Shown here: positions 5,560 to 61,753 of the stretch, piece after piece
Layout of the letters: the number at the start of each line of letters is the position of its first letter
How positions within the stretch are numbered: the first letter of the stretch is position 1
NCBI GenBank assembly: GCA_030390025.1
Contig: CM059432.1
Location: 95,978,001 to 96,042,000 of the forward strand
Length of the DNA: 64,000 nt
Origin: Squalus acanthias
Taxonomy: Eukaryota
Direction: 5' to 3'
Made by a program: the position numbers and the translations under genes
Notes under the pieces: model-generated
Told to the model about the DNA's origin: nothing
Seen by the model: only the letters and a program-made list of their open reading frames with translations
The model's database searches: none

Positions 5560-6110
5560 CGTGCCATGGCCCTATTTATCAAACCCAAAATGCCTTTTGT
5601 CATTTTAAGCCTTTATTTATCTGCACTTGCATTTTTCAAGGAATTACCTATTTGTACCTCTAGATCTCTCTGTTCCTCTACATCCTTCAGGTCTTTCCAT
5701 TTAGCTTATATTCCCCTTTCTGGTTTTTCCTCCCAAAAGGTATTGCCTCAGAATTCTCCACATTAAATTGTATCTTCCGCCTGTCCAGTCATTCTGCCAG
5801 CTTCTGTGTCTTTCTGAACTCTCTTACAGTTCTCTTTGCTGTTTTCCAAACTCCCTACTTTTGTGTCATCAGCAAATTTTGATAGCATGCTCCTTAAACC
5901 CCAGTCCAAATCATTATACAAGAATAAAAGTGGACTTTAGCCTTGGAGCTGGATTACACTTCCAATCCTAAATCTTTATTTCTTGTCGGGCAACCAACTT
6001 TCTATTCAAGCTTCTACATTTCCTCTTGTAACATCCACCTGAATTATTATAACAGGTTATAACAATCAAGCACCTTCTGAAAATCCATATACATGTGTAG
6101 CACCTTCTTC
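5560..6110 (-). mobile_element. Old CR1 RT fragment
   Basis: Degenerate KFADDTK-like 'tttgtgtcatcagcaaattt' and DFQK-like 'ccttctgaaaatcc'. Confidence 0.55.
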
Positions 6111-6157
6111 CTCCAGTGAGGCAGTTGTAAATTAGTATCAGCAAGAATAGTTAATTA

Positions 6158-6510
6158 CAGGAAACTCTTTGGTATCCGGCACCGACGGGACTGGGGTGGT
6201 GCCGGTTGATTAAAAATTCTGGATGACGGAGAGGGTTATCTACCGAGGCTATTTTTAACAAACAAAAATAAAAGAATCAAGAAATGTGCAGTATACAGTA
6301 ATTGGGTACTCACCTACAGAATGTTGTGTTAAATGGATGGTGGAAGATGCTTGATTAAATACAGTACTACCAGTTGCGGGTAATCCATAACTCTTTAATT
6401 ACTTAACAGTAAAACAAAACGGTTATTGGGGTGGTGTTTTCGGAGTATGAATTTTGCCGGTTAATAGAGAATTCCGGATATTTAGGTGCCGTTTAAACGA
6501 GAGTTTCCTG
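6158..6510. mobile_element. Tc1/mariner (Tigger/pogo-like) MITE
   Basis: Imperfect ~26-bp TIRs CAGGAAACTCT...CGGCACC at both ends, with TA at 6156-57 and 6511-12. Confidence 0.8.
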
Positions 6511-8337: not shown

Positions 8338-9223
8338 TTGAGAAGTGGGGTGGGGAGAATATTGACAAAGGAAACAAATGCGTAATTTACAGAGTGAGGT
8401 AAGTTGGCAGATTGTTGATAAGTGAGCTTTAAAACAGATGCACCATGCCTGTCTAACCATTGGTCTAAAGGTTACTGAAAGGCAAGATTTGTGTACACAT
8501 CTTTTCTTTATCTGATTAAGCTACAGGGTGAATCTCCAAATTAAAACTGATAAACAGTTGAGCTTACAATTATACTTCTGATGCAAAATAAAGAGCTTTT
8601 TTGAAGCCTTAAGGGATTAATGCTTAAAGATGCTCCTGTTGGTAAAAATCCTATTGAGTATTTTGCAGGCACAATTATTTTACTTCTACACTAGTTTCTC
8701 CATGAGGCAATGTTCATTGTTGCTGACAGTTCCCTTGTTTGAAGTGATCTGTAGAAAAATGCTTCCTGTTCCAGCTAGGTCACTGGTTCTGAGCCACCAT
8801 TTTTAATTGAGGTCTGAGCTTGATACTTGGAAGAAAATCTGCTTTAAGCAAACCGCCTACCTAACTGTATAAATGGATAGTCAGACTGAACATTAGTCCA
8901 ATGCTCAGTTTTTAATAGCAGCTAAAATATTAAACTTGTTTAAACTCACTTGTGATGCTTGAAATAAAGTTTTCAGCTTTTTTTCCCCTCTTTCTATCAT
9001 GACAGTTTAGTAATTGTTTTTATTCCTCTGCTATTAGATTATACTAACCAAAAATCCCTGGGAGCATCTCCTTCATGTGATGTTGTTGAACCCCAGGTGG
9101 CTAACTATCTTCTAGCTCTTTTGCAAAACAAAAGCATCGTATTTAAAATTATTTTAATAAATTGCTTTAGCTGTTAAAGAATATAAAAGAATATGCTAAT
9201 GCTGCATTATTTTTTTCCTCAAG

Positions 9224-9302
9224 GTCTGGAAGGGGTAGGAAATTGAGTGGAGACCAAATAACCTTGCCAACAACGGTTGATTATTCATCTGTTCCTAAAC
9301 AG
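9224..9302 (+). CDS. EBAG9: EBAG9 (RCAS1) internal coding exon, 79 bp
   Basis: AG/GT flanks; encodes (R)SGRGRKLSGDQITLPTTVDYSSVPKQ, matching vertebrate EBAG9. Confidence 0.95.
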
Positions 9303-9660
9303 GTATCCATTTTCAAAAATTGCAGTCAAGTAAATAGTCATGTTTTATTGAGTGTTTTATTTTGCTGCAGTTGGGTATAATACAATGGGAATTTGAAAGT
9401 AAATTAATTCAGATTGACTTTCCGCGGCAGATAGTAGTTTAATTTCCAAAGTTTGCAGTTACACCCACTTTTCAAACTGCATTTGAAGCTTTGTTACACT
9501 CCAGCGGCATTTTATATTGGCAGTGTGGCGGGGATGAAAAATGTCTGCACCATGCTAGGTGCTTTTACATTTGGTGGTTCTGTAGTTCACATCGTTGAAG
9601 GAGCGATAGCTACCCATTGTTAAAACTGATTCTATCCCAACAGCACAATCATACATCTGT

Positions 9661-36910: not shown

Positions 36911-37130
36911 GCCTCTATATAATATACTATGAACTACCTTGACAGAAATAAACTTAAAAAACACTCACCAGCTACTCACCAATCAGCTCTCTCCCTCTAA
37001 TAGGCTATGAACTACTTAGCAGAAATACACTAAAAACTTAACAGAAAATACCCACCAGCTACTCCCCAATCAGTTCCCTTGTGCCGACGTCACTTCTGAA
37101 TTCTGACGTCACTCCTATGTTGAGTACCTC

Positions 37131-38045
37131 TCTGTGCCTCTCGCAGGTCCGCCACTCAGCTCCGGTCCCAGGCCTCCTCTCCGCGCTCCTTTTATCCTCC
37201 TCTCGCCGACTCCGTGCCTCTCACAGGTCCGCCACTCAGCTCCGGTCCCAGGCCTCCTCTCCGCGCTCCTTTTATCCTCCTCTCGCCGACTCCGTGCCTC
37301 TCACAGGTCCGCCACTCAGCTCCGGTCCCAGGCCTCCTCTCCGCGCTCCTTTTATCCTCCTCTCGCCGACTCCGTGCCTCTCAGCTCCGGTCCCAGGCCT
37401 CCTCTCCGCGCTCCTTTTATCCTCCTCTCGCCGACTCCGTGCCTCTCACAGGTCCGCCACTCAGCTCCGGTCCCAGGCCTCCTCTCCGCGCTCCTTTTAT
37501 CCTCCTCTCGCCGACTCCGTGCCTCTCGCAGGTCCGCCACTCAGCTCTGGTCCCAGGCCTCCTCTCCGCGCTCCTTTTATCCTCCTCTCGCCGACTCTGT
37601 GCCTCTCACAGGTCCGCCACTCAGCTCCGGTCCCAGGCCTCCTCTCCGCGCTCCTTTTATCCTCCTCTCCGCGCTCCTTTTATCCTCCTCTCGCCAACTC
37701 CGTGCCTCTCACAGGTCCGCCACTCAGCTCTGGTCCCAGGCCTCCTCTCCGCGCTCCTTTTATCCTCCTCTCCGCGCTCCTTTTATCCTCCTCTCGCCAA
37801 CTCCGTGCCTCTCACAGGTCCGCCACTCAGCTCCGGTCCCAGGCCTCCTCTCCGCGCTCCTTTTATCCTCCTCTCCGCGCTCCTTTTATCCTCCTCTCGC
37901 CAACTCCGTGCCTCTCACAGGTCCGCCACTCAGCTCCGGTCCCAGGCCTCCTCTCCGCGCTCCTTTTATCCTCCTCTCCGCGCTCCTTTTATCCTCCTCT
38001 CGCCAACTCCGTGCCTCTCACAGGTCCGCCACTCAGCTCCGGCCT
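37131..38045. repeat. GC-rich minisatellite, about 10 units of 80 bp (one 65 bp) and 103 bp
   Basis: Unit tcacaggtccgccactcagctccggtcccaggcctcctctccgcgctccttttatcctcctctcgccgactccgtgcctc. Confidence 0.95.
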
Positions 38046-39711: not shown

Positions 39712-40180
39712 GGGGGGGAATCGGAGGGGACAGAGACTGGGGAGAGGAGGAATTGGAGGGGGAGAGACACGGGGTGGGGGGGGGGGGGACAGGGAATCGG
39801 AGACGGGGTGAGAGATGGGGGGGCGAGAGACTGGGGAGAGGGGGAATCGGAGGGGTGAGAGACTGGGGAGAGGCAATTTGGGGTGAGAGACTGGGGAGAG
39901 GGGGAATCCGGAGGGGCGAGAGGGGGAATCCGGAGGGGGGAGATCGGAGGGGGGAGAGGGGGAATCGGAGGGGGGATGGGGGAATCGGAGGGGGGAGAGG
40001 GGGAATCAGAGGGGGAATCGGAGGGGGGATGGGGGAATCGGAGGGGAGAGAGACTGGGGAGAGGGAATCGGAGACGGGGAGAGGGAATCGGAGACGGGGA
40101 GAGGGAATCGGAGACGGGGTGAGAGATTGGGGGGGCGAGAGACTGGGGAAAAGGGGACGGAGGGAGATAGAGGGGGGTGA
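39712..40180. repeat. G-rich degenerate minisatellite (GGGGGAATCGGAG / GAGAGACTGGGG units)
   Basis: Direct inspection. Confidence 0.9.
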
Positions 40181-41333: not shown

Positions 41334-43244
41334 TGATGATGTACAATGTTGATTTGGTATAAATGTTTGAAATAGGAAATTAAAAATTGAGAGTACAATG
41401 AAGTTTGTTTCCCACTATTTAATTGGGAAGTACCTAAAATAATTCAACACTTTTCGTGCTAAGAGCAGGGATTAATATTGTGGAGAATGTTTGAGAGAAA
41501 AACATTAGAAGCGAAATTCGTAAATTAACATCTTTACGTCAACATAATAGTAAACATTTCCAAGTCAATCTGATTGGTTCTCCTGTCAAGGAAGAAAGAT
41601 GAATGTTTATTCTGTTAAATCATAGCTTTTCCTGCTTTTTGTTTTTAATTCAGTGATGCAAATTGTGTATGTGTTTTTCTGCACTTGTGAATAAGTGCTG
41701 CATTTCTGACATGTTACATGGGGGGTGTGCTGGTTCAAGACGTTTATTAATGGAAGTAATTGAAGTTGGAAATATGGATACCCGTTTTTGTTCAATTCTT
41801 TTTAATACTGTGAACTAAAGAAATACAGCACTTTATATTTGTTGGTTGTCTGGTTGCATTGTGATTAATATTCTAATTATTTATGTGGACGTACAGCACC
41901 ATAGGAAAGCTGCTGCTCCTGCTGCTTGTGCAGTCATTGCTATAGTGACCTGAGGGATGGGCTAATATGTTAAAAACTTTAAAATTAATACAAATTGCAT
42001 GAATAGATACGCCTCTTTCAGCTCACCTTGGGCTTTTGGATTGTTTGCCGATGCATAACTGTGTAACTGAGTGATGTTTCTGAAGTGTTAATGCATTATT
42101 ATGTAGTTCTTTTATATTCCAATCATTGCTGACGAGTAATTTTTTATTAGAGTTTGTACATGGTGAACTAAAAGCTTTTAATTAATTTTACCATAAGCAA
42201 ACTTGCAGAATGGGCATGTAAATGACAAATGAATTTCAATATAGATAATTGTGAGGTGGTACATTTTGGTAGGAGGAATAAGGAGGCAACCTACTCCTTG
42301 GGAAAATAAGAGTCTAAATGGAGTAAAGGTGCAAAAGAATCTAGGGGTATAGATTCACAAATCATTAAAAGTAGCAACGCAGTTTTAAAAAAGCCATAAA
42401 AGCAAACAAAGCACTGGGGCTCATTTCTAGAGGAATAGAATTCAAAAGCACAGAAATTATGCTAAACTTGTATCTGATTGTCTCATGATTTGAGACGGTG
42501 GGGTGGCAAAATGGCATTACTGTATATATGCTTTTAAGTGGTTGCTGTTGTTGTAAAAGTAGTTGTTTTAAAATTTGCTCACGGACAAAAAGGTCACGCT
42601 CAAAGGAGTTCGTCACCCGTTCAGTACAAAAAAAAATTAGAGGGAACATTGGTTGGAATCACTTAAAATTAAGTCACCTGTCCAAATGGGATATATCCTA
42701 GGTTGCTGAGGAAAGCTAGGGTGGAGATAGTAGAAGCTCGGACCACAATTTTTCAATTCTCCTTGGATATGGGAGTGGTGCCAGAGGATTGCAAATGTTA
42801 CACCCCTGTTCAAAAAAGGGGACAGGGATAAACCTGGTAACTACAGGCCAATCAGTCTAACACAGTGGCTCTCAAACTTTTTTGGTTAAAGGACCCCTTT
42901 TCAAATGGATCAGTAATCATGGACCCCCCATCTAAATTATAATACTATAAACTCCTTGCACATTTACATTTCTGAATGTAAAGTTCATCAGTGTCCTGTT
43001 AAAGGGACTTGCATGAAATTTTGCCAGGGCTGTCTGATATAATGAACACTGATGTGATTGGTGATGTGAAAACTTTTATCTTCCCTTCAGCTGAAAGGTA
43101 ACCCTACAGGTTCAGCAACATGCCTATTGAATACTTCACTGCACAACAACAACTCCCTGCTCTTCCTGGAGTGGGGTTAGGCCCGGTGGCTCCTGTTGGG
43201 AACACTGGCACCGTTTCCATCCACCGCCTGCCAACTCACTGCAT

Positions 43245-44830
43245 CTCTCGCTCTGCACCCCATCCCTCTCGCTCTGCACCCCATCCCCTCGCTCTGCACT
43301 CCATCCCTCGCTCTGCACCCCATCCCTCTCGCTCTGCACCCCATCCCCTCGCTCTGCACTCCATCCCTCGCTCTGCACCCCATCCCTCGCTCTGCACCCC
43401 ATCCCCCTCGCTCTCCGCACCCCATCCCTCTCGCTCTCCGCACCCCATCCCTCTCGCTCTCCGCACCCCATCCCTCTCGCTCTCCGCACCCCATCCCTCT
43501 CGCTCTCCGCACCCCATCCCTCTCGCTCTCCGCACCCCATCCCTCTCGCTCTCCGCACCCCATCCCTCTCGCTCTCCGCACCCCATCCCTCTCGCTCTCC
43601 GCACCCCATCCCTCTCGCTCTCCGCACCCCATCCCTCTCGCTCTCCGCACCCCATCCCTCTCGCTCTCCGCACCCCATCCCTCTCGCTCTCCGCACCCCA
43701 TCCCTCTCTCTCCGCACCCCATCCCTCTCTCTCCGCACCCCATCCCTCTCTCTCCGCACCCCATCCCTCTCTCTCCGCACCCCATCCCTCTCTCTCCGCA
43801 CCCCATCCCTCTCTCTCCGCACCCCATCCCTCTCTCCGCACCCCATCCCCCTCTCTCTCCGCACCCCATCCCTCTCTCTCTCCGCACCCCATCCCTCTCT
43901 CTCCGCACCCCATCCCTCTCTCTCCGCACCCCATCCCTCTCTCTCCGCACCCCATCCCTCTCCGCACCCCATCCCTCTCTCTCTCCGCACCCCATCCCTC
44001 TCTCTCCGCACCCCATCCCTCTCTCTCCGCACCCCATCCCTCTCTCTCCGCACCCCATCCCTCTCTCTCCGCACCCCATCCCTCTCTCTCCGCACCCCAT
44101 CCCTCTCTCTCCGCACCCCATCCCTCTCTCTCCGCACCCCATCCCTCTCTCTCTCCGCACCCCATCCCTCTCTCTCCGCACCCCATCCCTCTCTCTCCGC
44201 ACCCCATCCCTCTCTCTCCGCACCCCATCCCTCTCTCTCTCCGCACCCCATCCCTCTCTCTCTCCGCACCCCATCCCTCTCTCTCCGCACCCCACCCCAT
44301 CCCCTCTCGCTCCGCGCCGCACCCCATCCCCCTCTCGCTCCGCGCCGCACCCCCCCCTCTCGCTCCGCGCCGCACCCCATCCCCCTCTCGCTCCGCGCCG
44401 CACCCCATCCCCCTCTCGCGCCGCGTCGCACCCCATTCCCCTCTCGCGCCGCGTCGCACCCCATCCCATCCCCCTCTCGCTCCGCACCCCATCTCCCTCT
44501 CGCTCCGCACCCCCATCTCTCTCTCTCTCTCTGCACCCCCATCTCTCTCTCTCTCTGCACCCCCATCTCTCTCTCTCTCTGCACCCCCATCTCTCTCTCT
44601 CTCTCTGCACCCCCATCTCTCTCTCTCTCTCTGCACCCCCATCTCTCTCTCTCTCTGCACCCCCATCTCTCTCTCTCTCTCTGCACCCCCATCTCTCTCT
44701 CTCTCTCTGCACCCCCATCTCTCTCTCTCTCTCTGCACCCCCATCTCTCTCTCTCTCTCTGCACCCCCATCTCTCTCTCTCTCTCTCTGCACCCCCATCT
44801 CTCTCTCTCTGCGCCCCCAGCTCTCTCTGA
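43245..44830. repeat. Pyrimidine-rich minisatellite of about 19-27-bp units (CTCTC..CGCACCCCATC)
   Basis: Direct inspection; unit length varies with the number of CT dinucleotides. Confidence 0.95.
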
Positions 44831-44927
44831 ACCCCATCTCCCTACCCCATCGCTCGCTCTCTCTCTCTACCCCATCTCCCTGTCACTCTCCACCATCTCT
44901 CTTCCCCCACCCATGTCGCACCCCCAC

Positions 44928-45029
44928 GTTCAGCAGATCGCATTCGCTGACTGCCAAACTGCTCGAAAAACGCCTGGACCTTGTCCCGCCGCACCTCTGG
45001 GGACAGCTGACCCCGAGGAGCTTCACCAT
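44928..45029 (-). pseudogene. RBM4-like RRM1 N-terminal fragment, two frameshifts
   Basis: gaggATGG start; MVKLL-x-GQLSPEVRRDKVQAFFEQFG-x-VSECDLLN is colinear with recalled RBM4 [35 protein letters not shown]. Confidence 0.6.
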
Positions 45030-45104
45030 CCTCGCCGTGCGGACGGGTAATCAGCACCGTTACAACGCAGCTCGTCCTGTGGAATAGAGAAACGCAGAGC
45101 CCCC

Positions 45105-45305
45105 ATTCGCAAAATGGCGGCCTGCGGCACCGCCTTCCTCGCTCTTCCATTGGCTGCTCTCCGTCACTTTGCTCTGTGATTGGTTCCCTCTGCTGTCAAT
45201 TACTTGCCAGACCTGTGAAATGCTGATTGGCTGTCAATCAAAGAATGTTACAGCTGATTGGCTGTCAATTAAAGACTCTTACAGCTGATTGGCTGTCAAT
45301 CAAGC
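45105..45305 (-). promoter_or_regulatory. CpG-island-type promoter fragment: YY1 site, 5 CCAAT boxes, 3 TGATTGACAG-type TALE motifs
   Basis: AAAATGGCGGC 45111-21; ATTGG at 45149, 45179, 45226, 45257, 45288; CTGTCAATYA at 45231, 45262, 45293. Confidence 0.55.
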
Positions 45306-45330
45306 ATCTACTGGCCCACATTCTTCCCCT

Positions 45331-46320
45331 AATAACAACAGAAAACGCTGGAAAAACTCAGCAGGCCAGGCATTGGTGGAGAGAGAAACAGAGTTAACGT
45401 TTCAGGTCGAAGACCTTTTGTCAGAACTGGAAAAAAGCAGGAAATGGAATAGATTTTAAAGCAAGTTTAGGGGCTGGGAAAAGGGAGAGGGGATGAAAGA
45501 ACAAAAGGGAAGGTCAGTGATAGGATAGCGAGCAGGAGCGATTAAGAGACATTGAGAGACATTAAGAGATATTCAAGGCAAGAGGAGGTGGTAATGGGAC
45601 AGGTTAAGGAACAAAGGATGGCTCTAGATGAAGTGTGAATTGTGCTGGCAGAATGAAGGACAGCTGCCATGTGGGAGGGAAGAAAAAAAGGGCCAAACCA
45701 AAAGTGTGGATAAAAAAAAAATATATATATATATATGTGATAGGGGCCGAGGTTATGATCTGAAATTGTTGAACTCTATGTTGAGTCCAGAGGACTGTAG
45801 AGTGCCTAATCGAAAGATGAGATGCTGTTCCTCGAGCTTACGTTGAGCTTCCGTGGAGCAATGCAAGAGGCCTGAGGACGGTGAGGTCTGAGTGGGAGTG
45901 AAGCGGTAAATTAAAGTCACAGGCCAACTGGAGCTCGGGGTCCCCCTTACGGACTGAACGGAGGTGTTCCGCAAAGCGGTCAGCCAATCTGCGTTTGGTC
46001 TCCCCAATGTAGAGGAGACCACATCGTGAGCAGCAAATACAGTGTACTAAATTGCAAGAAGTACAAGTAAATCGCTGTTTCACCTGGAAGGGGTGTTTGG
46101 GGCCCTGTACAGTGGGAAGGGGGGAGGTATAAGGGCATGTGTTGCATCTCCTGCGCTTGCATGGGAAGGTGCCGGGCGAAGGGAAGGGGTGCTGGGGGTG
46201 ATAGAGGAGTGGACTAGGGTGTTGCAGAGGGAGCGGTCCCTATGGAATGCTGAAAGGGGAGGTGAGGGGAAGATGTGTTTGGTGGTGGGATCACGCTGAA
46301 GGTGGCGGAAATGGCGGAGT
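45331..46320 (-). mobile_element. 5'-truncated Neptune-type Penelope-like element (Cys linker, GIY-YIG endonuclease, 3' UTR with mutated hammerhead)
   Basis: FPCKRRRCNTC linker; FTCTSCNLVHCICCSRCGLLYIGETKRRLADRFAEHL; RKLEEQHLIFRLGTLQSSGLN; TTCCCCT repeated at both flanks. Confidence 0.88.
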
Positions 46321-48461
46321 CTTTTCCCCTCCCTGCTTCTCCTCCTGCTCTTGCAGCGCATGGCCGCTGCTGCTGCCGCCGCCATGGTAACCATTCAGCA
46401 GCGCCCAGCCACTCCTCTCTGGTACGGCTCGCGCTCCATCACCGATTGGGTTTTTTTTCGCGGACCCATTGAAAATCTCTATGGGCCCCCAGGGGTCTAA
46501 CGTCAGTGCTGGGAAAACTAGTAGAGACCATTGTCAAGGACAAAATTAATTCTCACTTGGAGAAGCAAGGGCTAATAAGGGGCAGCCAGCATGGATTTGT
46601 TAAAGGCAAATTGTGTCTGACTAACCTGATTGTCTTCGAAGATGCAGTAACAGAGGGTCGATGAAGGTAGTGCAGTAGATATATATATATATATATATGG
46701 ACTTTCAAAAGGCATTTGATAAAGTACCACATAACAGACTTATTCGGAAAATAGAACCACATGGGATTAAAGGGACAGTAACTTGAGTACATAACTGGCT
46801 AAGGAATAGGAGACAGAGCGTTGTGGTCAACAGATGTTTTTCTGAATGGAGAGAAGTATGCAGTGTGGTCCCCAGGGGTCTGTATTAGGACCATTGCTTT
46901 TATTGTTCTATATAAATGAGTTGGACTTGGGTATAGGGAGTACAATGTTGAACTTTTAGGATGATGACGGCATAGTAAATAGTGAGCAGGATAGTAGACT
47001 TAAGAGGACATAGACAGACTGGTGAAATGGGCAGACACATGGCACATGCAATTTAATGTGGATAAGTGTGAAGTGATGCATTTTGGGAGAAACAACATGG
47101 AGAGGCAGTATAATCTAAACGGGATTATTTTGTGGGGGGTGCAAGAGCAGAGGAACCTGGGGGTGGATATTCACAGATCCTTGAAGGTAGCAGGGCAAGT
47201 TGATGGGACAGTTAAGAGAGTGTATGGGATACTTGGCTTTGTAAATAGGGGCATTGAATACAAAAACAAGGAAGTCAAGCTAAGCCTTTACAAATCACTG
47301 GTTAGGCCTCACTGCAGTATTGTGTACAATTCTGGGCACCACACTTTAGGAAGGATGTCAAGGCCTTGGAGAGGGTGCAGAGAGTTTTGCTAGAATGGCA
47401 CCAGAGATGAGGGACTTCAGTTACGTGGAGAAATTGGAGAAGCTGGAATTGTTCTCTTTAGAGCAGAGAAGGTTAAGGGGAGACCTAATAGAGGTATTCA
47501 AAATTATGAGGGGTTTTGATAGAGCAAGTAGGGAGAAACTGTTTCCTCTGGCAAGTGGGTCAGCAAACAGAGGTCATAGATTTAAAATAATTGGCAAAAG
47601 AACTAGGGGGGAAATGAGGAGAAACATTTTCACACAGATGATTATGATGATCTGGAACGCACTATCTGAAAGGGTGATGGAATCAGATTCCATAGGAACT
47701 TTCTAAAGGCATGTATTTGAAGAGAACTAATTTGCAGGGTTATGGGGGAAAAAGCAAGGGTGTGGGACTAAATTGGACAGCTCATTCTAAGAGCCGGCAC
47801 AGGCATGACAGACTGAATGGCCCCCTTCTGTGTTGTAAGATTCTATGATTCTATGCACATACTCTATTCACCTGTTGTATAAAGTCTCCGACTCTTGTGG
47901 ATATTTGTTTTAACCTAAAGTCAAACTAAAATGAACTAATTAATGTAGCAAACTACTTACCCACCCAAAAATCAATGCCCTTACTGGGTCTGAGGGAATA
48001 GTTTAGTGTGTTGTAGGATGCATGTTATTTGAATAATCAAGATTTTATACGGTAATCTATCTTCATTTAAGCAACTAATAGGAGTATATCACCGTAGGAA
48101 ACAGGGCTCCCCTCTCCCTTCGGTTCACCATTCGTGGCAGAACATTCAGCTGCTTCAGACCTATTCCCAATCAAACCTCCTCATATTAACTCAAAGTGTT
48201 TGCATTCAGTTAATGTTTGGGTAGTATTTGAACACATTGTGCACGCCAATGGCAATTATCCATGAAGCAGCTTTACTTTCATTATGCGGGCTGTACATGG
48301 TGTCTGCATAATTTGAAGAAGATGTAACACCGAATGGATGGTTCTTAGGCTATCCTCGGCAGCCATGGCTGACACACTAAGAAACCCCTTAACAGCAGAG
48401 GAGCGTCTTGTACTAATGCCTTTACAAAAATATATAAAACTTTGAAAAGAAGCTCCTACAG

Positions 48462-57891: not shown

Positions 57892-59110
57892 TTAGTGGGA
57901 TTCTTTTTTTGTAGCTGGGTGGCGAAACAGTGTGCGAGGTGCATGGCGCAAAGAGTGCAAGGCAACCAAACAGCACCCACGCAACAGAGCACCAATATTG
58001 TACAGTGGCTCTGTTCCTCCTCTGTGTGTGGAAAATACCCATGCCAAAGTAGGTACTACAGGTGCAGCCACTGCCAACAAATCAATAATAAAATGGCTGC
58101 TCCAATAGCTTCTCTGACATACTGCAGATGGCTGCTCCTCTGAGACACTATATTCATTATCATCTGTTTCATCAAACATAGATGTGAAAGTAAGTTCCGT
58201 CATATCGTTTACTATAGGCAAGTGCTGTGCTTGTTCATTGTACGTAAATGCCTGAGGGCTCATGAAATGGTTAACAGATTCTAATTTAGACACCAGAATT
58301 GCAGTATTAGGATTGTTTGGAGTCAAATCCATCAAAGCATCGGTGACTACTCTTTCAAACTCTGGTGCACATGCTGCTTGACCAGCATCTGACACCCAGG
58401 TTGAAGATGTGGGGCTGACTGGGCTGTTATGTTGTGATTTCAGGATGTGTAGAATGAGTTTCTGTACATCTGGGCTATATGGTACTATGTCAGTCTGGAT
58501 AGCCTGCTCCCTGACCAGCTTATTATCATCCGTCACAAAGATCATACCACTTTGAGCAGAAATCTCAAATGTTGCACTGTTAACAAGCGTTGCCTGCATT
58601 TCATTAGCTTGTGACCAAGAGCCATCTCCGGAGCTACTTTCAGCGGGTTTTGACCTCAGTATTTGGTCAAAGAGATCTGTTCTGCTTGCCATATCATCAT
58701 TGGCAAGCAGACCACTATCAGCCATTTCTTCAACAGCTTGATCTTCTAGGCCCATGGCTTCAGCCATTTTTGTGTAGGTTGTGCTACGTGCCAATGACTT
58801 CACTGGTGATGGACACATGCAGTCCAGGGATGAATCATCCCTTGAAGCACCATTCTGAGCCAACTCCATGCTCTGCAGCAAAGACTCAAGTTTCTTGTTT
58901 TGGATATTAATGTCGACAAAGTATTTTTGAACCCCTTTGTCCTTCTCCACCAAACTGTTCTTCATGGTGTCAATCACCTCACGGAGTTGTTTGATCTCCT
59001 TTCGAGCTTCCTTTAGCGCCAGCTGGGCTTCAACTCGATGACATTCTTCTTCAATCCAGTCTTCACGCATGCGAGCGAGCTGGGACTTGAGATCTGCAAC
59101 TTCGGATTCC
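57892..59110 (-). CDS. SYBU: Syntabulin last coding exon (coiled coil to C-terminal membrane anchor)
   Basis: Acceptor tttcaatAG at 59112-59111; (R)ESEVADLKSQLARMREDWIEEECHRVEAQLALKEARKEIKQL...YWSSHFIIDLLAVAAPVVPTLAW...GALLRGCC; adjacency to EBAG9 favours SYBU over its paralogue SNPH. Confidence 0.92.
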
Positions 59111-61753
59111 CTATTGAAAGAAAAGGTTTGATAAACATAAATAAAGTTTGGAAACTGTTAAATTTACAAAATAATATGGGTAGATCCAAAAATGTATTGG
59201 AAACCTGGATTCCGTACAGTGTGCATGTCTGGTTTTAAGTGCTTAGAAATTGTGTAAAATCATCTGCCAATTAAACAGAGAGGATGTGTAAATTCCTGGC
59301 AACTTGCAATAAAAGACCTCAAATTAATCACATAAATTTAAGGCTCATGTTCATAGTAACAAAACAAATACTGAGTCTTTTGAATGCACCCTAATGAAGT
59401 TTTGTATTCTGTTTTGTGGAGAAGACAATACTGGGTATTATCAGTATACTGTAGTAGAACCAGATTGGTATATAAGTTGGAAAATCTTTGTTGGAGCCGC
59501 AACAAAAAGCTTTAAAAAAATAATTGTACAAATTAGCTAAAACTGTTCCAACACAACATTTTTTGTGCATCTTCCTCTTAAGACTCAGATTATAGTATTA
59601 AAATAAGCTTTATTCATTTATATTTAAAGTTCTTCACTAATTGAAGTTTCACTGGTTCACACACAATAACATTTTGAATAGGAAATGAAAGTGCGAAGTT
59701 TACTTTAGGTTTATTTTTTGACTTCATCCACAAAAAAAATGTATAAATCCCATAATTTTAATGGACAAAAAAATCCTGCGGCCTGCTAATCTCTGTGTCT
59801 AAGTCCCCAGTACAGCCAATATTATGGACCCTGAAGTGCCAGTACTGTTCAGGCATTGTGTGTAACTGTGCCGATAATGCGAGGTCAGCTCATTTGAATA
59901 ATTTTCTGGCACCTAATTATTTGGATACAGATTTATACTGATGCACATAGCATTCTACTTGTGGTCCAGCATTTCTACATTTTAAGCCTAAAGATTACTG
60001 TTGTTAATATTAGCGTACAACGCTTAATTCACTTCTTTGATATTCCTCGGTCTGTTACTTTAACACAAGCATCAACTCATTTATTTTAAATTAATGAATG
60101 CCTCCACTAAAACAGCAGGTGGGAGGAGTGGCATATGATCACATTAAGTTTTCAACTACTGATGTCACTAATAATAATTTCTAAGCTTTAATTGTGTTGC
60201 ACAATGTTAACGCAGTTTGTTTCATGCGCTTTTAATGTTTTTGTTTACCAGAAATGCTGGTGCAATACCATCGACAAACCTTTTAACTGCTCTTCTCTCT
60301 TCCTAAAGAGTAAAACCCTAATGACATGAGGACAGAGTAGTGTGGCATAATGAGGAGACTTGATGCCTCCTAGCAATGGAGTGCGAGCTGTATCCAGCAT
60401 TCAGCACAACTGAAATTTTTTTTTTTTTGCCAAACTATTAGCGATCTAGTACAGAATTCAACCACCCCACAATGCCAGGTCTGTATCACAGAAAATTCTA
60501 CATGCACTGCGGAGATAAACATTGTAGCAGGCAGCAGTGGCACCGCTGCAAACATTATGATGAAAGAGGTACAGTACTGGGTTTTCATGCAGAGCCAATG
60601 GTACTGGCAACCATCAGTGGTGAGCCCAATCAAAGCAGAGGTCTCGGGACCCAGACAACAATGAAGATGACAGAAAGAATGTGAATTTCTCTGTAGCAAT
60701 CAACTGCTCCCAGCTCGACTCTTTTCATAGGACGAGGCTGAGTTCAAGATCCAGCACTAAACAAGCAACACACAAACTTCACTTTACCTTAACTGATAAC
60801 AAGCACCAAACCATGTGCACTCTGGTCATGTCCACACATCCAGTTCTTGTGGAAGAAGATCCAAGAGGCTACCAGGACCAAGATGGGTCTCCATGTTCCT
60901 AGATTTTACCCCATGACTACTTGGTCTGCTTTCAACAAGAGTCTTCCACAGTTTGTGGACTTGCTCACATTTCACAATAAAACATAGGAACAAAGCAACT
61001 GCAGAATATTTGCCAGTCTGAGCAAGTGATGCACGGGCTGTGCATGGAACTGATAAACACTGTGAGGCGTAGGCTCACTTTCTACGGGCCCATTACATCC
61101 ACAGCCCCCCTAATCTTACACAGCTGAGGGGAGCCAAGGTCCATTGTTTGACCAAAGAGACTCCACCCTCCCACATCAGCATCCTAAAATATTACACAGT
61201 GCCCAAATCCTCACCAGAACCACCTGTCAGCTTCCCTGACCCAACTTCCTCACCTGACACAAGTCTCTCTCTAACAAATAAAGATCTGGCTCTATAAATC
61301 CTCAATACTAAAAGGTACATATACCTCATTGTATATACCTGCAGACACCATGTAATATACCTGTAATGTATTATAACCTCACAAAATTGTGTAATTGTGA
61401 ATCCAAAAACTTTAATCAAAAATTGGTGACATGTTTTCTAAATTTCTTCACAGTTCTCCACCATTTATTTTATCTATGGGAGACAGCAGTACACAATGGG
61501 GCAAACAGTCAAAGAACAGGGAAAGATTTAAAAAAATGAAAGACAAAAACTCATTCTGTGAATGCAACAAGAATATTATAGAACATTTTGAAATAATAAG
61601 TTTTCAATGATTTTTGAGGGAAAAGATGGAATGTAATAATGATGGAAGAGGACAATGTGCAAAGGTTCCACAAGCCACTGCAAAATGGATAAGTAACATC
61701 GCCTAGCTGATGAATCTGCACTGTGATACAACTATCTGTCACCAGAACTCAAT

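Follow-up and report, generated by a model that had tools for sequence, protein, structure and literature searches.

A multicopy Pack-hAT transposon of Squalus acanthias with pieces of three genes and a probable change of shell

Introduction

How does the start of a host gene, promoter included, come to lie between the ends of a cut-and-paste transposon, and what becomes of it there? The question is raised by an element at 42863..46494 of a 64,000-nucleotide stretch of the Squalus acanthias genome (contig CM059432.1, positions 95,978,001 to 96,042,000, or C8:95978001-96042000 in our numbering), which we call the window. A preliminary description of its letters had proposed a Pack-hAT, that is, a hAT transposon that carries a captured RBM4-like promoter and start exon. 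Searches of the 3.7-Gb genome reveal that the element is a real multicopy Pack-hAT, notable for its copy number, its three traceable parent genes and its surviving intermediates. The window copy itself is in all likelihood a dead member of this multicopy, non-autonomous hAT-type family, and a change of shell by the cargo is probable.

Multicopy gene capture by such transposons has been regarded as rare in vertebrates. Tan et al. 2021 report 370 Pack-TIRs (elements with host sequence between terminal inverted repeats, TIRs) in 100 animals, of which four are multicopy and none comes from the elephant shark (PMC8277862; here and below, comparisons refer to those parts of the cited papers that were covered). 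Their cases include Pack-hAT-N8_XT of Xenopus tropicalis, present in 3 copies with a CAPSL 5' untranslated region (UTR) as cargo, and template switching is proposed there as the origin of Pack-TIRs.

Results

We searched the genome with 44890-45330, and the 45 matches from the best 40 of 55 candidates resolve into 39 distinct copies, the window copy included, and one locus on C26 that has no TIR. This locus is the parent, a multi-exon RBM4-like gene (C26:20057596, plus strand): exon 1 holds 35 codons and ends at a GT donor, exon 2 follows about 6.4 kb further on, and exon 3 has, by eye, the CCHC spacing. RBM4B is the top PDB match of exon 1 (E 4.4e-9), exon 2 matches RBM30/RBM4B, and the RRMs are recognized by both Pfam and PDB, the Pfam scan covering a stretch that ends ahead of the CCHC part. 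The predicted protein, with two RRMs followed by a putative CCHC knuckle, belongs in the RBM4/LARK family and appears closest to RBM4. The window cargo aligns to the parent at the DNA level (E 4.9e-55), and the RBM4 identity proposed earlier is supported. The match lies well above chance, with a local score of 244 against the parent, while the nearby RBM4 paralog scores 33 and none of 200 shuffles exceeds 26. Between the majority exon of the copies and the parent there are three synonymous changes before the end of the last codon, and Pfam gives no match for the frameshifted frames of the window copy. A second RBM4-family gene is found 22 kb away in head-to-head arrangement, its first intron occupying the same position (L031:7376-7480 and L033:9596-9700); of these two paralogs the cargo parent is the more diverged.

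In the window the RBM4-like parts lie on the minus strand. The 5' UTR and promoter (45030..45308) contain five CCAAT boxes (45149, 45179, 45226, 45257 and 45288), the sequence GTGACG (45162-45167) and motifs that we take to be GC-box-like (45128-45134) and YY1-like (45111-45121); together they span 45111-45292, in agreement with the preliminary description. In the parent, deep RNA cover begins near L033:9518, downstream of its five CCAAT boxes (9258-9452), in runs whose type is our guess and whose contigs do not map transcript starts exactly; exon 1 and exon 2 are joined in contigs of all three RNA-labelled runs at depth 16-52. The coding part of exon 1 (44928..45029) starts at ATG 45029 in a strong Kozak context and carries two compensating frameshifts, -1 and -2, as had also been described. 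On the other hand, the point at which the codons stop, previously read as a break into a minisatellite, is the exon 1 splice donor (GT 44927-44926), beyond which intron 1 begins (44881..44927). The donor of the window copy is weakened, AAC/GTGGGG vs AAG/GTGAGG in the parent.

The cargo thus runs from the promoter through exon 1 and its donor to intron position C26:20062038, and includes part of intron 1. Since it contains promoter, donor and intron, the capture took place at the DNA level, as had been suggested. The features of a processed retrocopy (lost introns, poly(A), a target-site duplication, TSD, of its own) are not those of this cargo, in which donor and intron are kept and the promoter is present. 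Two outcomes named beforehand as fatal to a capture, namely no RBM4 match, or a cargo with its own TSD or poly(A) that is absent elsewhere, were both looked for and neither was found.

The two arms of the element are of host origin as well, a point that the preliminary description did not include. The left arm (42948..43243, minus strand) is a piece of MYDGF intron 1, with alignments to locus L180, that of MYDGF, at E 3e-37 and 2e-20. The right arm consists of an inner piece of PANK exon 1 (45309..45330, minus strand) and of the start of that exon (46320..46452, minus strand, ATG 46439), which aligns to the PANK locus L186 (E 3e-6). Judged by these alignments, the window element is a three-gene mosaic, with MYDGF intron 1 on the left, the RBM4-like start in the middle and the PANK exon 1 start on the right.

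For each arm 20 of 40 matches were fetched, and most of them are shorter MITEs (miniature inverted-repeat transposable elements) with the same termini: M2, of about 1.0 kb, of which the left arm is a remnant, and M1, of about 0.7 kb, of which the right arm is a remnant. When aligned, five natural M2 peptides gave 11 protein matches, all of them shark or ray MYDGF (best E 2.3e-19), and eight M1 peptides gave two, both shark pantothenate kinases (PANK; E 5e-31 and 6e-14). The alignment search succeeded for M1 where a single-sequence search with its open reading frame (ORF), together with Atlas, gave no match; an M2 peptide had no Pfam match and a best PDB E of 1.1, and a PF10572 profile search of the genome gave no match. 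The MYDGF parent, found with a shark MYDGF protein, is a multi-exon gene on C19, to whose exon 1 and intron 1 M2 positions 87-943 align. The PANK parent is a multi-exon gene on C2. Its exon 1, donor and intron 1 match positions 98-645 of M1 at 81%, and M1 matches the gene by the interior alone. C7:131.32 Mb, tried as M1 parent, was rejected as a copy. No TIR match was found near RBM4-like exon 1 or MYDGF exon 1. At first look the M2 interior had 60 candidates, and M1 had 165 by DNA and 316 by protein. All three captures comprise a first exon and first intron in the same orientation; as three out of three identified cargos are a small and non-random sample, a first-exon bias is unproven. PANK exon 1 as assembled (L186 ~8400-8440) is frameshifted relative to shark PANK proteins and M1, through an assembly error or a variant. 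One M1 copy (L156 ~5900-6270) is broken by a putative histone H2A coding sequence.

The ends of the window element are those of what we call shell A. The left TIR CAGTGGCTCTCAAAC (15 bp) begins at 42863, and with the subterminal region it forms a left end (42863..42947, plus strand) common to the sister MITEs M1 and M2; the right subterminal region lies at 46453..46494 (plus strand). The flanking TSD copies, GTCTAACA (42855..42862) and GTCTAACG (46495..46502), are identical at 7 of 8 positions. They lie in a long interspersed nuclear element (LINE), presumably CR1-like, that is unbroken in another copy (L006 flank), where the 8-mer occurs once. The left end and its TSD had been described correctly, as had the lack of a transposase, none being present between the ends of the window copy. 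At the right end the TSD proposed earlier stands and the terminal TIR does not: about 29 bp adjoining the TSD are deleted, so that the window copy has one TIR, the right one being kept in sister copies. Only about 85 and 70 bp are shell A's own ends, the remainder of the arms being MYDGF and PANK cargo.

Three changes mark the window copy: loss of the right TIR, a Penelope-like insert and the growth of a minisatellite. The insert, a retroelement 3' fragment (45331..46319, minus strand) whose target duplication is imperfect and about 11 bp long, is later than the element, is absent from other copies and was not recognized in the preliminary description; its GIY-YIG match (E 0.005) is under Pfam's cut-off. 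The minisatellite (43244..44880, minus strand; 21-26-bp units) is specific to this copy, matches the GA-rich intron 1 of the RBM4-like parent, from which it grew, and stands in place of the inner TIR and unique intron part that other copies keep.

RBM4-like cargo was found at 57 fetched loci: 18 in shell A, the window copy included, 38 in a second shell, B, likewise missing from the earlier account, and 1 without outer ends. One further shell B copy brings the totals to at least 58 loci and 39 shell B copies; these are lower bounds, because half of the matches of each end were fetched and 40 candidates were scored per search. The terminus is CAGTGGTTCTCAAAC in shell A and CAGTAATGCCAAC in shell B, whose TIR of about 14 bp differs from that of shell A. 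Allowing one mismatch, 8-bp TSDs flank 8 of the 11 two-ended shell A copies and 6-bp TSDs none; in shell B, 16 of 25 copies have 6-bp TSDs, none has an 8-bp one and a single case is perfect at 5 bp (some misses are mis-called ends). In the shell A group, TA occupies positions 4-5 in 42 of 61 distinct flanking 8-mers, against a background of 6%. The same chimera thus sits at several loci with distinct TSDs, and non-transposon host sequence with identifiable parents lies between its TIR ends; the multicopy spread that had been predicted is borne out.

From its termini and its 8-bp TA-centred TSD, shell A would be a hAT element of Buster/Charlie type, the name Charlie being our assumption for these termini, and shell B is hAT6-like by its 6-bp TSD. 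The Buster group has the TSD nnnTAnnn (PMC3517528), and hAT6 is defined by a 6-bp TSD (PMC12730594). Shell A resembles the former in its TA-centred 8-bp TSDs and shell B the latter in its 6-bp TSD and short TIRs, group placement being by TSD and termini; IS3EU also makes 6-bp TSDs, but its TIRs exceed 30 bp, in contrast to the approximately 14 bp of shell B.

Several further observations concern these shells. In one shell B subfamily (L099, L108, L111, L114, L188/L192-L193) another promoter-like piece, with motifs that we presume to be ETS-like and ZNF143-like, stands in place of the RBM4 promoter and the greater part of exon 1; a parent gene for this piece was not found. More shell B families have other interiors (L103-L106, L109, L113; L081, L083, L087; L110, L112, L116), one of them with a ZNF143-like motif within a CpG-rich stretch. 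With 1281 first-look candidates for the left end of shell B, further cargo genes are probable. At L167 a complete M2 with its MYDGF piece is nested in a shell B element, a physical contact of both families. Sister copies that are neighbours (L134/L138 at C3:142.58 and 142.65 Mb; L008/L121 at C1:229.74 and 230.09 Mb; support 100 and 99) have different flanks, which suggests late local hops or gene conversion.

Discussion

Based on these results, a stepwise assembly by MITE insertion and template switching, with later passage to a second transposon family, is the likely origin of the mosaic. The proposed course sets out from one Charlie/Buster-type shell, which is found to hold MYDGF exon 1 with intron in M2 and PANK exon 1 with intron in M1. 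In 37 of the 37 copies that keep the spot, an internal right TIR of shell A borders on one and the same 8-mer of the RBM4 intron; since the intron begins at the TIR tip in all of them, the MYDGF-carrying M2 was probably once inserted in the first intron of the RBM4-like gene, on an allele since lost. At the right junction, the promoter joins the M1 interior at a six-letter stretch common to parent and M1. Repair synthesis would have passed through the right TIR of M2, the intron, exon 1 and the promoter before a microhomology switch into the right half of M1 supplied the new outer end, a step that we consider moderately probable.

A copy on C13 holds a complete M2, MYDGF exon included, ahead of the same junction, and the other copies with the inner TIR share one deletion; in structure, an internal deletion has taken out the exon that the C13 copy still has. 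This full-M2 intermediate (L165-L166, C13:47.72 Mb) has neither outer end and lies directly beside a CpG-rich promoter-like stretch. The hybrid, of about 1.9 kb in shell A, transposed with 8-bp TSDs, and the shell with the 6-bp TSD would subsequently have taken over the interior and amplified it further, in a version of about 2.3 kb. As 24 of 38 shell B copies hold the inner A-type TIR and two keep the RBM4-PANK junction of shell A, the direction from A to B is probable, and re-capture from shell A is the most likely source of shell B's cargo. Neutral decay of the copies, with fast CpG loss, has followed.

Several points weigh against this explanation. The present-day parent has neither a MITE nor a footprint at the junction, and the junction 8-mer, despite its central TA, scores weakly as a target, ranking in the top 10% among intron 8-mers and in the bottom 13% among real sites. 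Our reading of the microhomology is by eye, and both superfamily assignments are drawn from termini and TSDs. The cargo tree, from which 13 copies with fewer than 250 aligned bases were left out, is star-like, with shell A basal at low support, one A copy among B and two B copies among A; with this shape and three misplaced copies it neither proves nor contradicts the direction from A to B. Moreover, the right junction of the main B group differs from that of the two PANK-bearing B copies, so that at least two exchanges are needed.

In a composite transposon, M2 and M1 would have inserted so as to flank the RBM4-like 5' end, both pointing the same way; the left half of M1 would have been deleted and the pair then moved by its outer ends. 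This reading differs from the preferred course in the template switch alone. It would account for arms that come from two Pack families and for the retained inner TIR, and its geometry matches a proposal for Pack-CACTA elements in Arabidopsis (PMC6379663). However, two insertions and one deletion have to be assumed, none of the sampled copies has the M1 left end between promoter and PANK piece, and most other junctions of the network are internal, as template switches predict; because of this last point we favour the template switch and regard the composite as possible, if less probable. An order in which shell B captured the cargo and shell A was derived from it has in its favour the larger number of sampled B copies (39 vs 18) and the equal intron divergence (5.0% in A, 5.2% in B); it is made improbable by the A-type TIR and MYDGF intron inside B copies, by the PANK junction in two of them and by the existence of the full-M2 intermediate. 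Least probable is capture through RNA, with an unspliced pre-mRNA reverse-transcribed into the MITE by LINE machinery. RNA templates are possible for the MYDGF and PANK pieces, which have no promoters and start 10-20 bp before the ATG, but the RBM4 piece reaches about 200 bp upstream of the start of the parent's deep RNA cover (inexact, as contigs are) and abuts a TIR tip with neither poly(A) nor a TSD of its own.

The preliminary description also held that the family may spread ready-made promoters. The physical spread is as described, and the sequence evidence on function leans against it. At non-CpG positions, the median divergence of the copies from their majority is 6.5% for promoter plus exon (40 copies) and 5.1% for the intron (39 copies), and M1 and M2 copies diverge by about 6% (11 and 8 copies); the similar divergence of all three suggests one old burst. 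CpG transitions (0.206 synonymous, 0.195 nonsynonymous) are about fivefold more frequent than non-CpG transitions in the promoter (0.038), and because CpG loss is this fast the copies were presumably methylated. A raw pN/pS of 0.53 was rejected as a sign of selection: after class matching it is a mutation-class effect, the exon changes observed being 229 nonsynonymous and 131 synonymous where 238 and 112 would be expected (ratio 0.83). The CCAAT boxes are no better kept than background (26 of 558 sites changed vs 253 of 4307, permutation p 0.19). Exon 1 is intact in 15 of 34 copies, the window copy with its compensating frameshifts not being counted; the latter keeps 17 of 24 CpGs, above the median of 0.56, yet is among the more diverged copies. 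Preservation is best in the copies at C5:22.78 Mb and C15:44.25 Mb.

It is accordingly unlikely that the family disperses working promoters, with some copies starting transcripts or serving as alternative first exons and so aiding the spread, even though promoter sequence is present at 44 and exon sequence at 41 of 57 loci, CCAAT boxes and donor are kept in many copies, copy-derived contigs occur in all three RNA-labelled runs, and in bats the Helitrons that carry 5' pieces of genes attain higher copy numbers (PMC4224331). Besides the neutral decay and the CpG loss, the RNA itself argues against such activity. The contigs that match copies on C13, C10, C3 and probably C16 have a depth of 2-5, and three of these continue upstream through the promoter. 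In a single copy with deeper cover (14-63) the RBM4 promoter is lost; this copy is situated within an intron of a Mab-21-family gene, and its contig, by its length, begins outside the element. No RNA run was listed as holding the window copy, which speaks neither for nor against activity. Read-through fits these observations best. No RNA start within a copy was seen in the three small contig-only runs, all of one study, from which contigs cannot map starts and rare or tissue-specific ones could escape. The donor of the window copy is damaged, and a scan of 103 ORFs, which misses short exons, gave no host exon downstream of it in the window.

Like other animal Pack-TIRs, the shark element carries host sequence inside hAT ends, far from the parent and with distinct TSDs; unlike the cases of Tan et al., it is present in no fewer than 58 copies, unites three genes and a complete unit of promoter, exon and donor, and occurs in two shells (PMC8277862). 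It resembles the hybrid model for Pack-CACTA elements in that the ends of two parental Pack elements enclose host DNA (PMC6379663), and plant Pack-TYPE elements in that several source loci are united, which is often the case there (PMC8903248). It differs from plant CACTA and MULE Pack elements as a vertebrate hAT with surviving intermediates, and from plant Pack elements as described in these papers in that its cargo would cross to a family with another TSD length. In bat Helitrons such as HelibatN3, the amplified stretch takes in promoter, 5' UTR, exon 1 and a portion of intron 1 (Thomas et al. 2014, PMC4224331); sequential capture is common to both, and a bias to 5' ends may be so as well. 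Helitrons, however, are rolling-circle elements without TIRs or TSDs that reach up to thousands of copies, some in transcripts, whereas the shark element has TIRs and its function is not supported. Within literature from which most subscription papers and Repbase Reports fell outside coverage, and of whose supplements those of Tan et al. were searched, we found no report of this family or of a shark case, nor of cargo crossing between TIR families.

A single shell has taken up first exons from at least three genes and amplified each to tens or hundreds of copies. As parents and intermediates remain in the genome, the mechanism of capture, template switch or hybrid ends, is testable from sequence. 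If cargo moves between families with different TSD lengths, host fragments can outlive their first transposase. It is a speculative idea, which we consider rather doubtful, that sharks have, in a network of hAT MITEs, a vertebrate counterpart of rice Pack-MULEs, which repeatedly captures the CpG-island starts of housekeeping genes, merges them and relays them between transposase families, with some now acting as promoters or first exons. For annotation, caution is called for, as first exons of RBM4, MYDGF and PANK are present in this genome as decoys by the hundreds.

Surroundings of the element

A large syntaphilin-family exon is present on the minus strand (57895-59157, Pfam E 8e-90), and the element follows about 11 kb beyond it. 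Two further CpG-rich minisatellite arrays are present in the window (37130-38042 and 39800-40150). The window is flanked by ORFs of long terminal repeat (LTR) retrotransposons (L197:2741-6622 and L200:2-3708), one of which is a 1294-aa open frame with reverse transcriptase, RNase H and integrase.

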